Assembly: GCA_951406725.2 (NCBI GenBank)
Contig: OX597817.1
Location: 7,626,001 to 7,690,000 of the forward strand
Length of the DNA stretch: 64,000 nucleotides
Direction of reading: 5' to 3'
Origin: Octopus vulgaris
Taxonomy: Eukaryota
The position numbers were made by a program, and so were the translations under genes. This document shows, piece after piece, positions 474 to 58,360 of the stretch; position 1 is the stretch's first letter, and each line of letters starts with the position of its first letter. The notes beneath the pieces are model-generated. The model saw only the letters and a list, made by a program, of their open reading frames with translations. It was not told where the DNA came from and did not search any database.

Positions 474-826
474 GAAATATTAAAATTACTAAGTCTCTCT
501 AAAAGAGAACAGCGGCAGCGTTCCCGGAAAATAATAGTTATCGCCATACTAATATGGCATTCTTATAAAACCATCGAACAGAGATTGTCGGAAGCGACAC
601 CTACTGGCTGGCTACGCTGCATTGAAAAGGGGCAATACCCCGAAACGTGTCTGTAGCTGCCGGTCAAGTAGTGTGGAGCGACTGACCTCCCTTGTTCGAA
701 GGTTATATGGAAACAGTTTGTGTATCAAATAGCTAACTTAAGGCGATGGCCTCATGGAGCTAATAAGCGGACAGCTTTATTCTTATTTTTATAAGAATGC
801 CATATTAGTATGGCGATAACTATTAT
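474..826 (+). mobile_element. Non-coding Penelope-like (pseudo-LTR-type) element in (TA)n with inverted repeat and hammerhead
   Basis: Flanked by (TA)n on both sides; perfect 40-bp inverted repeat at 531-570 / 787-826; hammerhead motif at 616-657. Confidence 0.65.
616..657 (+). ncRNA. Minimal type I hammerhead ribozyme, U3-A8 core variant
   Basis: gctgca TTGAAAA gggg caata cccc GAAA cgtg TC tgtagc: stem I gctgca/tgtagc, stem II gggg/cccc, GUC cleavage triplet. Confidence 0.7.
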
Positions 827-1594
827 ATATATATATATATATATATATATATATATATATATATATATATATGCATATATATATACATATACATATACAT
901 ATACATATACATATATAGTCAAAAAAATAAACGAAGCACAAAGCCTTGGTAAAAGTATGTATTAGGTTGACGCTCAGGAAAATTGGAAGAGGCCGAACGT
1001 TTCTGTCTCGCTCTTCTACAGAAAAGATAGATAAAGTTAGGCGGAAAATAAGAGTTAAATATTCAAAGAAAACGAAGAAGTTGGCTTGATGTATGGGTGG
1101 CGAAGGAACAACAGTGACCTGTCTTCTGTACGTGCGTTTACGCCCACTAGCACACAGACACACACACAGATACACACACACACACATACACACATACACA
1201 CACACACACACACACACACTGACACACACACTCACACATATGTCAGGTCACCGTTTTATTTTTTTAACGTAGGAGGCAAGTATTTTTATTTTATATTTAT
1301 ATATATATATGAAAGTAGAAATACGAAAATATGTTTTCACATAGCAAATGTTCCCATATAAAAATTTTTTGTAGATGTATTAATGCATAAGTGAGTTTTA
1401 CATTCGCAACATAAAAAAAAGAGAAAGAGAAAGAAAAATTGAAGAGTTCTCGTATAAAAAGGAGTTTTACCGAAGGAATTCCATTGCATGTTGTAGACCA
1501 AAAGGTGTACTGAAGTAGAAGATAAATCATATTATGCTTACAGGGACCGGTTTTGATGTTGTTCTGCAAAAACTATATTACGTTTAATGAAAAC

Positions 1595-1884
1595 CAGTGC
1601 TTCCTAAACTTTTTTCTGGCTACCACCCTCTTGGCACCCAACCTACATTTCTAGTGACTCCCCTCCCACCCATCACTACAAACATAGACCACTTTCTGAA
1701 GCAAATTCAAAACAACCGTATATCCCAAGTACAACTTATCCTATTTTTTATGGTTTTCACATCCATAGACCCTTTTGGCTACCCCATTATCGCCCCTCTT
1801 TTCTTTAACGCCATACTCCTCCCGCCCCCTGGATCTTTCCACTGCTCCCAAGGAGTGCAGTACCGCTCACTTTGGGAACCACTG
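1595..1884. mobile_element. hAT-like MITE
   Basis: Imperfect TIRs CAGTGcTTCCtAAAcT / cactttgggaaccactg, resembling hAT/Charlie ends; the 8-bp TSD is only partly conserved. Confidence 0.5.
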
Positions 1885-2231
1885 ACTTAAACTAGCGCCT
1901 TTATAAAATCAGCTGTACATGCTGGTTACAAGTCTAAGCACCCTCACACCTTCTTGAACTATCCATGAGCATATTGGCTATAAGTTCTCTGCATTAATGA
2001 TTTCTGTAAACTGGATAGATTGATTTGCATATTTAACACTTTGTGACAGACAGTTCGAAACTGAATTTGGGTTTTGTGAAAAGCGTTTAGTTTCATTGCT
2101 GTAATATAAAATATATCGAAAAAGGTTTAGCCAACAATGTACATAATGGCGAAAGTAAATATTGCTTCTATATATAGTGTATGGACATATATATAATATA
2201 TACAGATGTATGTATAAATAAATGTACTATC

Positions 2232-2632
2232 TTATTTCTTTACTGCCCACAAGGGGCAACACACAGAGGGGACAAACCAAGACAGACAAACGGATTAAGT
2301 CGACTCATCGACTCCAGTGCGTAACTGATACTTATTTAATCGACTCCGAAAAGATGAAAGGCAAAGTCGACCTCGGCGGAATTTGAACTCAGAACGTAAC
2401 GGCAGACGAAATACCTATTTCTTTACTACCCACAAGGGGCTAAACACAGAGAGGCCAAACAAGGACAGACAAACGGATTAAGTCGATTCTATCGACCCCA
2501 GTGCGAAACTGGTACTTAATTTATCGACCCCGAAAGGATGAAAGGCAAAGTCGACCTCGAGGGAATTTGAACTCAGAACGAAATACGGCTACGCATCTTT
2601 TCCCGGCGTGCTAACGTTTCTGCCAGCTCGCC
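2232..2632 (-). mobile_element. Meta-domain tRNA-SINE, tandem partial dimer
   Basis: Two consecutive units with the reverse complement of gcctttcatcctttcggggtcgataaattaagtaccag and a B box gagttcaaattcc. Confidence 0.8.
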
Positions 2633-55056: not shown

Positions 55057-55500
55057 GGCGTAGGAGTGGCTGTGTGGTAAGTAGCTTGCTTAAGAACCAC
55101 ATGGTTCCGGGTTCAGTCCCACTGCGTGGCACCTTGGGCAAGTGTTTTCTACAATAGCCTCGGGCCGACCAAAGCCTTGTGAGTGGATTTGGTAGACGGA
55201 AACTGAAGGAAGCCGTCGTATATATGTATATATATATATATATATATATATATATATGTATATATATATATGTGTGTGTATATGTTTGTGTGTCTGTGTT
55301 TGTCCCACCAACATCGCTTGACAACCAATGCTGGTGTGTTTAATGTTCCCGTAACTTATCGGTTCGGCAAAAGAGACCGATACAATAAGTACTAGGCTTA
55401 CAAAGAATAAGTCCTGGGGTCGATTTGTTCGACTAAAGGCGGTGCTCCAGCATGGCCACAGTCAGATGACAGAAACAAGTAAAAGAGTAAAAGAGAGAGA
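55057..55500 (+). mobile_element. Microsatellite-carrying tRNA-SINE, full length
   Basis: A box tggctgtgtggtaag, B box ggttcagtccc, ccttgggcaagtg core, internal (TA)n(TG)n, LINE-like tail ggcggtgctccagcatggccacagtc. Confidence 0.88.
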
Positions 55501-57808
55501 GAGAGTAAACGTAATGGGTGAAGTAGCTATCAGTTGTTCGAATTTCTATACTGGAGGTATCCGATACGTGAAACATTGTGTGTTCCCTACAAACAGATAA
55601 AGCCTGGACTAACTGTTAGCCAGTATAGTCTATTTGTGAACGTTCATATTTGTTAAAAAAAAAAAAAACATTTGAAAATTATAATGATTTGTGTAGCAAC
55701 AGGGTGCTTTTAACAGTATTCAATTTCACTAGCCTATATTCTGAGTTGAAATATTGCCAAGGTTAACTTTACTGGGGTGACTGAATATCGCCAACATGCC
55801 TTGTTTGAAAATCTATAGCTTTGTGATAAAGTTTGGTCATTCTTGTTAGAAATTCTGATAACAGCCATGTCAAAAAGTACACGTCTCAAGATTTGGGTGA
55901 CATGTTTGTTTGTTTTTCTTTTTTGTATTTCTGCACTTCAACTGCCTACATCAAGAACAACTCTTTTAGTTCACATCCTGTAATTCTAAACAACTACGTA
56001 ATTGAGTATGGCTTAGCAACTTGTGCCGTGCTTTCGTTCATTGATTTAGGTGCCAATGTAGCAGACGTAGCTTCTGGATTTTTATACCCTTGACCCATGG
56101 AAAGGTCCTGAATGCGACAGTTAAAGAGGCTTGTATGCGCTTGGCTGGTATTTATCTTATCTGAGTATGCTGGTGTAACGTGAAACGAAGTGCGTTACTA
56201 AAAGAAAATTTGCTACCGGGTTCAGGAATCGAACCTACGAGCTTACGATTGTAAGCCCAACTCCCTAAACATTAATCAACAGATTTTCATATTCCTATAG
56301 TAAGAGAAATAATTTTCATTTGGGTGTTCCAAAGTTATCTCTTCTAAGAGAACAATTCCAGATACTTTTGAGCTTAGAGGTTTTATATATATTTTTTTCG
56401 GTGTGCCTCTACGAATGTATAGTATCCTAAAATTGTATATTTTTCTGAAAAATATCATAGTATATTCCAATTTGACATTTTCAATCCCAGCTTCTGGCTA
56501 GCGCTGGTAACATCTTTCATCTACTTTGATTCCAAATTTTCTAATAACCCCTCTAGTGTATTTTTTTCCCTTGCCCGAAAATGTTATCTTTTTTTGTATT
56601 CATTTTTGTACCATTTTCTATATTTACACACGAAATGAATGGCATTTTTGTATACTCTGCAACACACCCGACACTATCTTGTCGGTTTCCGGCAGCGTTA
56701 TAAAACGTTTTGATCAAATCGTTTGTTCTTGTGCAACCATAAGTGATATTCTCTCCCTTTTTTGTCCTCTATCTTTCAGCCAAGCATACACTTCCTCTCC
56801 TACTACATGTTTGCTTGACAAACTGCCCATGCAACATGCTTTCTCATATTTGTTCTTTCATTGCTTCTTTTTCTTTATTTGTGTTTTTTTTTTCCTTCCT
56901 TTCTTTTTCCATTCTTGAATATGTTTCGACTTCTATGAAGCCGCCATTGATCTTCCTCGTTGCACGTATAAGCTTCGCTTCACTTTCCCTTGAATACCTC
57001 TCTATTTATATAATTTATATGCATACTGAAACTTCCTCCCTCTTTCTTCCGCTACTTTACTCCCTCACTCTTCTCTACCTCATTGTCTCTCTCTCTCTCC
57101 TCTACATCTCCCGCGTTTCTTCACTTCTCTGTCCCTCTTCCCTAACTCTCTCTCACTCTTCCTCTTCTCTATAGCTCTCTCATCTCTATTGCTCTCTCTC
57201 TCTCTCTCGCTGTCTCTCTTTCTCTCTGATATTTCTGTTCTATTTCTGACATTTCTCTTCTATCTCTTTTCCTTTGTTATAAGCATTACTGATGTTGTAT
57301 CATCTAGAAAGATGATACAAATTGCAGTTTGTAGCTTTCTGCTGCATCTACCGTTTTTATCAACTTTTTTCTGTTGTCTATTAAGCAAAAGCTGTTGTTG
57401 TGTTAACCCTGGTCAAGCCTGATTGAACAGAACAATGATAACTGGTGTTCCAGTCGTGACCATCCTTTTTTTTTTCTCTGGCATAGTGTATCTAGGATAA
57501 CATTATTCAGTGTTGTCAGCTCTTTCTCTTCTCTGATGGCAGGGAATAATTCTTTTTTATCTCTTCAGTTACTAGATAGCAGTTTAGTCAGACAAATCGA
57601 CCCCTGTGCTTTTTTTTAAGCCTGTTACATAAGCTATCGTTCTCTTTGGCTGAGCCGCTAAGTTACGGGGACATAAACAATCCGGCACCGGTTGTCAAAC
57701 GGTGGTGGAAGATAAACACACACAAACGCAAAGACACGCACGCGTGCACCTATACTGGCACGTGCTTTTTTCCAGATTATCTGCTCCTTCCTCCTTTTCC
57801 TCCTCTCT

Positions 57809-57835
57809 CCGACGAAAAGCCATGCTCGAAACGTC
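57809..57835 (+). ncRNA. Hammerhead ribozyme remnant
   Basis: CCGACGA aaagc cat gctc GAAA cg TC; stem I is lost. Confidence 0.35.
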
Positions 57836-58021
57836 ATTTCTTCTTTTCTTCCATCTAAAATTTTCCCTGAAGGTCAATTTAATATATTCAATGTGTACGT
57901 TTAATTGATTTTGTTGTTTTTCATTTGTATATTTATTGTATATATATGTATATATGTATGTATGTATATATATATATATATATATATATATATATATATA
58001 TATATATATATATATATATAT

Positions 58022-58360
58022 ATTATATAAAGGGCATAACTACCAAATATAAACAAATCGTACCGAATGCAATTCTCGAATTCTCGAACAGTTCCATATG
58101 CTACGATGGATGCGACAGTTGTCTGTCTGGTATGTTGGTTTGTTCATTCATTATATATCTTGAATTCGCTGTACTGACGAGCAAGAAACGCAGATACTGC
58201 GTTGATTGCGAAATCACAGGTGATCTATAGCTAAATTCTGTTTTTAAATGACTCGCTTCGAGAATTGCATTCGGTACGATTTGTTTATATTTGGTAGTTA
58301 TGACTTTAAAAGTCCCTCCTAGCGTGCGGCATTTATGTGTAATAATGCCCTCTATATAAT
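58022..58360 (+). mobile_element. Non-coding Penelope-like element with inverted repeats and hammerhead
   Basis: Follows (TA)n; perfect 46-bp inverted repeat 58035-58080 / 58257-58302, outer inverted repeat 58022-58037 / 58345-58360; hammerhead inside. Confidence 0.75.
58168..58231 (+). ncRNA. Type I hammerhead ribozyme with canonical core
   Basis: gctgta CTGACGA gcaa(ga aacgcag ata ctgcgtt ga)ttgc GAAA tcac ag gtga TC tatagc: all three stems pair; AUC cleavage after 58225. Confidence 0.88.

Follow-up and report, generated by a model that had tools for sequence, protein, structure and literature searches.

Four inverted-repeat loci in a 64,000-nucleotide stretch of the Octopus vulgaris genome (contig OX597817.1, positions 7,626,001 to 7,690,000 of the forward strand; hereafter the window, numbered from its first letter) are best explained, at a probability of about 0.7, as separate insertions of endonuclease-positive (EN+) Penelope-like retrotransposons, three of them cut to the hammerhead-bearing 3′ repeat or less, with the inverted repeat a by-product made anew at each insertion. 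The loci are called L1 to L4 in order of position. An initial annotation, made from the sequence alone, had described here a recurrent module of a (TA)n tract, a head-to-head inverted repeat and a hammerhead ribozyme alongside a Penelope-like element (PLE) encoding a reverse transcriptase (RT), and had left open whether the loci are truncated ends of several Penelope families or a class of ~300-bp fixed elements resembling retrozymes or miniature inverted-repeat transposable elements (MITEs). The first of these readings is supported by the variable breakpoints of the L1 family and by the RT and GIY-YIG endonuclease carried by L2. The design of the module is itself already in print (PMC8557442, PMC4209133, PMC3846280).

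Arms, target sites and the RT-encoding element

The near-perfect inverted repeats reported for the four loci were confirmed. The arms are identical at 40 of 40 positions in L1 (531-570 / 787-826), 70 of 71 in L2 (31062-31132 / 33976-34046), 78 of 82 in L3 (38971-39051 / 39064-39145) and 46 of 46 in L4 (58035-58080 / 58257-58302), the last of which has a second, outer pair of arms (58022-58037 / 58345-58360; 15/16 identical). In a self-BLAST of the microsatellite-masked window, identity of at least 98% was reached only by L1, L2 and L4 among 12 local (<4 kb) inverted matches, and the L3 palindrome was the longest short-spaced one, indicating that the four loci were not cherry-picked. Their bodies had no mutual BLASTN match at E ≤ 0.05, in agreement with the absence of obvious similarity noted earlier, and self-BLAST of the window gave no direct self-match of L1 or L4. 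A (TA)n tract of at least 8 units lies within 4 nt of 7 of the 8 locus ends, when the right end of L2 is placed at the end of its tail (34076), while 0.6% of non-tract positions lie within 5 nt of such a tract. The claim that each locus adjoins (TA)n therefore held for every end except the right end of L4, which lies 114 nt from the nearest TA tract. Any target-site duplication is masked by the (TA)n flanks. In L3 the left arm alone has an extension of ~100 nt, and in L4 the inverted arm corresponds to the right-hand end of the locus without the 42-nt segment 58303-58344, a gap bounded by ATG microhomologies.

The presence of an RT-encoding Penelope element, also claimed initially, was confirmed at L2. 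Judged from its sequence, 31062-34077 is a near full-length, EN+ PLE of the Neptune type, its clade being assigned from the linker motif. The frame consists of 369 and 376 residues divided by one in-frame TGA at 32866-32868 and includes a Pfam match to GIY-YIG (E 8e-6). The protein has 503 longer relatives at E ≤ 0.001, and most of the best 120 of these 503 are annotated with PF00078; the two halves are 55% and 61% identical to full-length relatives. A CX2-5CxxC linker between RT and EN, the mark of Neptune and Nematis elements (PMC8557442), is present in 227 of 240 retrieved relatives and is visible in the alignment of L2 as well. The open reading frame (ORF) begins at residue 6 of the relative P0009, ~5 residues short of the N-terminus of that protein and exactly at the inverted-arm junction, indicating that L2 is barely truncated. 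Its layout, with the inverted 3′ end and tail at the 5′ end of the element, matches the published one. No direct upstream pseudo-long terminal repeat (pLTR), which would give a partial tandem, was found at L2 by self-BLAST, the inverted arm being the sole match to the 3′ end; a direct upstream pLTR is optional in such elements and was lost here by truncation. A second member of the L2 group in the window is a bare 3′ end of ~235 nt (7827-8062), in which a decayed hammerhead-like region was seen near 8010-8040 on the reverse strand. Pattern matches in genomes (135), metagenomes (66) and viral contigs (13) included no confirmed locus related to the L2 protein or one of its relatives, and none of the exact DNA patterns taken from L1 and L3 had a match.

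Features of the four loci and of hammerhead motifs elsewhere in the window
Feature	Start	End	Strand	Remarks
L1 tail	471	530	-	60 nt; on inverted arm only; adjoins (TA)17
L1 inverted 3′-end copy	531	570	-	40/40 arm
L1 main arm	565	826	+	5′-truncated 3′ end of high-copy family; terminates in (TA)24
L1 minimal type I hammerhead	616	657	+	U3:A8 core variant; predicted cut after 651
Possible hammerhead remnant	7031	7076	+	A9 changed; 7037 scores 6.75, 0.25 expected per window
Short 5′-truncated 3′ end, L2-related family	7827	8062	-	74% over 143 nt; without inverted arm; ~235 nt
Hammerhead remnant	27746	27794	-	intact core, good stems I and II; 27788 scores 9.7, reached by 0/40 shuffles
Possible hammerhead remnant	28936	28985	+	palindromic stem III, weak stems I and II; 28942 scores 6.9, 0.2 expected
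L2 3′ non-coding end	31062	31734	-	adjoins (TA)19
L2 degenerate minimal hammerhead	31196	31240	-	U4>C, palindromic stem III; predicted cut at 31201
L2 ORF	31735	33975	-	Penelope-type RT and C-terminal GIY-YIG; CX4CxxC linker
L2 inverted 3′ end and tail	33976	34077	+	71 nt and ~30-nt tail; adjoins (TA)14
L3 head-to-head palindrome	38868	39153	.	81/82-nt arms, 12-nt centre; TA tracts on both sides
L4 inverted arm	58022	58080	-	adjoins (TA)29
L4 main arm with tail	58081	58360	+
L4 type I hammerhead	58168	58231	+	intact core, extended stem II, 5-bp stem III; predicted cut after 58225

Hammerhead motifs

A strict type I hammerhead descriptor, the core of which agrees with PMC4209133, was applied to the window with 20 shuffled windows as background, and a graded hammerhead score was compared with 40 shuffles, expectations being given per window. 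The strict descriptor matched at 622-651 (+) in L1 and 58174-58225 (+) in L4, with 1 match in the 20 shuffled windows. The graded scores of these two motifs, 13.95 and 14.05, were reached by 0 of 40 shuffles, and both motifs have the conserved core and the three stems of a type I hammerhead. In most other copies of L1, stem III is a perfect palindrome (648 T>C), a form reported to be active as a dimer (PMC4209133). A lone minimal motif such as that of L1 is predicted to need a partner for cleavage, and the putative L4 ribozyme, with its stable 5-bp stem III and long stem II, could be active as a monomer. The motif in L2 (31235-31201, reverse strand) scores 6.7, with 0.25 expected per window, which is weak on its own, and it is called a hammerhead because of its position in the 3′ end of the element, at a point 500 nt past the stop of the ORF and 139 nt short of the element's terminus. 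Thus, of the three type I hammerheads claimed for the loci, those of L1 and L4 stood and that of L2 is degenerate.

Hammerhead remnants had also been proposed at 7034, 28938 and 57809. The first two are plausible, with best positions at 7037 and 28942, but 57809 was rejected, as its score of -0.8 is expected 68 times per window. A further candidate at 38681 was rejected as well (35 expected per window). One remnant absent from the initial annotation, at 27746-27794, adjoins a (TC)n tract, and no inverted arm was seen there. An old imperfect palindrome (78%) at 2784-2856 has at its centre a hammerhead-like core that scores at chance level. Scanning with hammerhead models had been proposed as a check; done with Rfam on the window, it gave no hammerhead match among the best 150 of 159 whole-window rows, nor on L4 or L1 alone, and the whole-window rows were otherwise microsatellite-driven noise of microRNA type. 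No tandem array covers a hammerhead site in any of the 93 Tandem Repeats Finder rows for the window.

Joints of the L1 family and the origin of the inverted repeat

Other copies were compared for L1, the only short family so treated, by matching positions 471-826 to public contigs. The family was present in 20 runs from 13 studies and 10 organisms, none of them recorded as RNA, with 58-77% of its words shared, and L1-matching contigs numbered 1950 and 1495 in two deep runs and 5 and 6 in two shallow ones. Two contigs, X14 record 1 and X9 record 27, show an unrearranged order of 56 new letters, positions 565-826, and then the reverse complement of 530 downwards, indicating that L1 has on its left an inverted 3′ end together with a 60-nt tail, which in the unrearranged element is continuous with the body. 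The match of these contigs to the main arm begins at 565, and the 6 nt of 565-570 are a microhomology common to the inverted copy and the main arm. The joints between the two arms were collected from 15 of 26 joints in a first listing and 12 rows of a second, from which two go-back rows, four duplicates and one body-internal joint were removed, leaving 20 inversion-type joints. Among these, 19 different main-arm starts were found, and arm length ranged from 24 to 85 nt on the inverted side and from 26 to 262 nt on the main side. In 14 of the 20 the inverted arm consists of tail only, and therefore forms no repeat with a tail-less body, and in 16 of the 20 the main arm starts 3′ of the hammerhead and so lacks it. 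Each of the 15 joints of the first listing was found in 1-2 contigs, and at least 2 letters are shared at 10 of these 15.

The arrangement of L1 in the window is spanned by no listed contig piece. As the joints also differ among copies, the inverted-repeat module of L1 is likely rebuilt at each insertion rather than being a fixed unit, and the proposed fixed ~300-bp class is unsupported for this family, in which the hammerhead also occurs in no tandem. By the same evidence it is highly improbable that the modules are fixed, MITE-like fold-back elements that move as a unit with the arms as terminal repeats. The near-perfect arms, TA targets and size of ~300 bp would suit such an element, and L3 is almost a pure palindrome, but in L1 the arms are not terminal, since the 60-nt tail lies outside one of them, and L2 has the same layout around an RT ORF. 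The initial annotation had stated that random breakpoints together with extension of the short elements into an ordinary Penelope ORF would make them plain truncations. For L1 the breakpoints are indeed variable, and no RT ORF was reached in the 56 nt that the contigs add upstream.

The preferred reading of separate, truncated PLE insertions suggests the following course of events. The GIY-YIG domain would nick both strands of a (TA)n tract, and the RT would prime from both nicks, starting once at the tail end and once at the body end of the template, with the tail lying between these two adjacent start sites. Synthesis of both complementary DNAs (cDNAs) would halt early, and a 5′-to-5′ join between them, made at 0-6 nt of microhomology or with a few added bases, would give a product of TA, a short inverted arm with tail, a main arm and TA. 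The hammerhead would belong to the pLTR and be retained only where the main arm is long enough, and the left arm of L4 may have arisen by skipping 42 nt from one ATG repeat to the next. Two-ended priming of this kind would explain why TA flanks both sides, why a single arm carries the tail, and why inverted arms made of tail only and joints of varying position occur. This is consistent with work on the Poseidon element, whose protein, given AT-rich DNA in vitro, cuts the two strands and extends each of them, and whose RT starts at two adjacent internal sites bounding the tail, with no need for hammerhead cleavage (PMC11167929). The inserted copies are likely dead on arrival.

For the inversion step only, the same Penelope origin could instead be combined with self-priming or fold-back of one cDNA or of an antisense template. 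Self-priming has been put forward for the Penelopes of Adineta on the evidence of palindromes at the inverted junctions (PMC3846280), and here the L4 junction carries a short palindromic duplication and L3 is a hairpin. The two arms of L1, L2 and L3, however, differ in where their 3′ side ends, one having the tail and the other lacking it, and a simple fold-back of the main arm can yield neither this nor the tail-only inverted arms that predominate in the L1 family. We therefore consider self-priming quite unlikely as the source of the inversions.

The joint starts of the L1 family are not uniform in position. In a test on 18 joints, after removal of two at the reference edge, 9 starts fell within 661-696, a short distance 3′ of the predicted cut (scan P 0.017; a small, tool-selected sample), and only 2 within 566-651, compared with 6.5 expected. 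A common 5′ boundary at the cut site or stem I, such as has been noted in other genomes, was not found: of the 20 joints, none lay within 3 nt of the cut and 1 lay inside the hammerhead. The sequence known upstream of L1 stops 56 nt beyond 565, at exactly the same point in X9 record 27 and X14 record 1, which come from two low-depth runs of two organisms. This coincidence raises the alternative that the short families (L1, perhaps L4) are non-autonomous Penelope derivatives, in which a discrete hammerhead RNA of ~380 nt (56 nt, 565-826 and the 60-nt tail) would be served by a Penelope RT in trans and undergo the same truncation and inversion at insertion. The known 322 nt contain no ORF, the longest open stretch being 55 codons; non-autonomous PLEs exist, as in MRC1 (PMC8557442), and pLTRs are the source of retrozymes (10.64898/2026.07.22.740005). 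The point where a contig stops within a collapsed repeat, however, may be any graph branch, a pLTR transcription start or a drop in cover as well as the true end of a ~380-nt non-autonomous unit. No tandem unit was seen either, no hammerhead lies in a tandem array, and the upstream loose end of L1 does not match the tail. The 30 letters upstream, ending in a stop in two frames and with a faint resemblance to PLE C-termini, are too short to test and were not used. The discrete RNA is thus a possibility that we take seriously but regard as unlikely.

A bolder version is unlikely too: that the L1 family is such a discrete RNA across octopods, inserted by two-ended priming of a Penelope RT, with some templates cut by the hammerhead in vivo. 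Template cutting of this kind would explain the joints piled up 10-45 nt 3′ of the predicted cut (9/18). If true, the family would document at the genomic level that the ribozyme acts during Penelope retrotransposition; according to PMC11167929, such action was found neither in vitro nor by RNA sequencing in Anolis.

Several points weigh against reading the four loci as truncated EN+ PLEs with inversions made anew. Besides the clustering of joint starts and the common upstream stop, no ORF was reached from L1 in contigs that extend 56 nt upstream. The L1 runs represent DNA other than that of the window, with a best word share of 0.77, and the joint set includes 15 of the 26 joints of the first listing. 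L3 and L4 are assigned from the anatomy they share with L1 and L2, other copies having been examined for L1 only, and L3 has no hammerhead and no ORF to give its orientation. The tails of L1 (60 nt) and L3 (~100 nt) exceed the published 30-40 nt. In L2, Pfam RVT_1 gave no score on the two halves of the ORF, scanned separately. Finally, two-ended priming is drawn from the Poseidon element in vitro and applied to these families by analogy.

Relation to known elements, abundance and host setting

The loci share most of their anatomy with canonical EN+ PLEs (Neptune and Nematis). These likewise combine an RT with a C-terminal GIY-YIG domain and a CX2-5CxxC linker, as L2 does, and likewise show strong 5′ truncation, an adjacent inverted 5′-truncated copy, a tail at one end, microsatellite targets, microhomology joins and a terminal-repeat hammerhead; of these traits, PMC8557442 describes as typical the truncation at the 5′ end, the neighbouring copy in inverse orientation, the tail on one side and the preference for (TA)n or microsatellites. 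The copies here differ in having no direct upstream pLTR and in the tails of 60-100 nt at L1 and L3. With the minimal hammerheads of PLEs (PMC4209133) the loci share the type I topology, the palindromic mini stem III, single scattered motifs and, in L1, the U3-A8 covariation, whereas L4 departs from them in its stable stem III and long stem II; the same source ascribes lone, opposite-strand minimal and U3-A8 hammerheads to truncated PLEs.

Non-LTR (non-long terminal repeat) retrozymes, as described in PMC7229834 and 10.64898/2026.07.22.740005, share the size of 300-400 nt, the type I hammerhead, the lack of an ORF and the link to PLE pLTRs, but they are head-to-tail tandems giving circular RNAs, whereas each locus here is one head-to-head unit that carries at most one hammerhead. 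The octopus Naiads (Naiad_Obim, Naiad_Ovul; PMC8557442) share the (TA)n target and the inverted structure but have an N-terminal EN and no canonical hammerhead. Their consensi were rejected as a match, since 8 short motifs from L1, L3 and L4 gave 0 matches in the PMC8557442 supplement. A literature search on octopus or cephalopod Penelope, hammerhead or retrozyme elements, with most subscription journals and Repbase outside its coverage, found no paper on these families. The present loci add octopus examples of the published Penelope insertion layout, and such truncated copies can be misfiled by MITE or fold-back finders. The many independent joints of the L1 family could bear on two-nick priming and on template cutting by the hammerhead in vivo.

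The very high density suggested by the initial annotation was unsupported. Five PLE-type pieces in the window total 4233 bases, or 6.6%, compared with 6.83% of the Octopus vulgaris genome for 190 Penelope-like families (PMC13282606), indicating that the density is ordinary. The proposed setting in a cephalopod intron is plausible. The closest named cephalopod relative of the L2 protein, from Octopus sinensis, is 81% identical over 52% of the query, and a 127-nt exon of a KCNQ (Kv7) potassium channel lies at 10103-10229 (+) with AG/GT flanks (E 2e-15 to KCNQ4), which makes an intronic setting likely; no second host exon was found in the window among 150 of 377 candidate ORFs.

Other features of the window include decayed LTR-retrotransposon pol fragments at 44337-47287 on the reverse strand (RVT_1, RT_RNaseH, integrase H2C2 and rve). 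At 8721-8809 (+) a transfer RNA (tRNA)-like Rfam match with an insert scores 32.1 bits, above the gathering score, and may be a tRNA gene with an intron or the head of a short interspersed nuclear element (SINE). A 150-residue open frame at 18071-18520 on the reverse strand, with no Pfam match, resembles by eye the C-terminal part of an RTE-type long interspersed nuclear element. A SINE-like repeat is dispersed over 24017-24632 and about ten other places, with up to 11 matches inside the window, and at 24017-24632 it forms a tandem of 2.3 copies with a period of 235.

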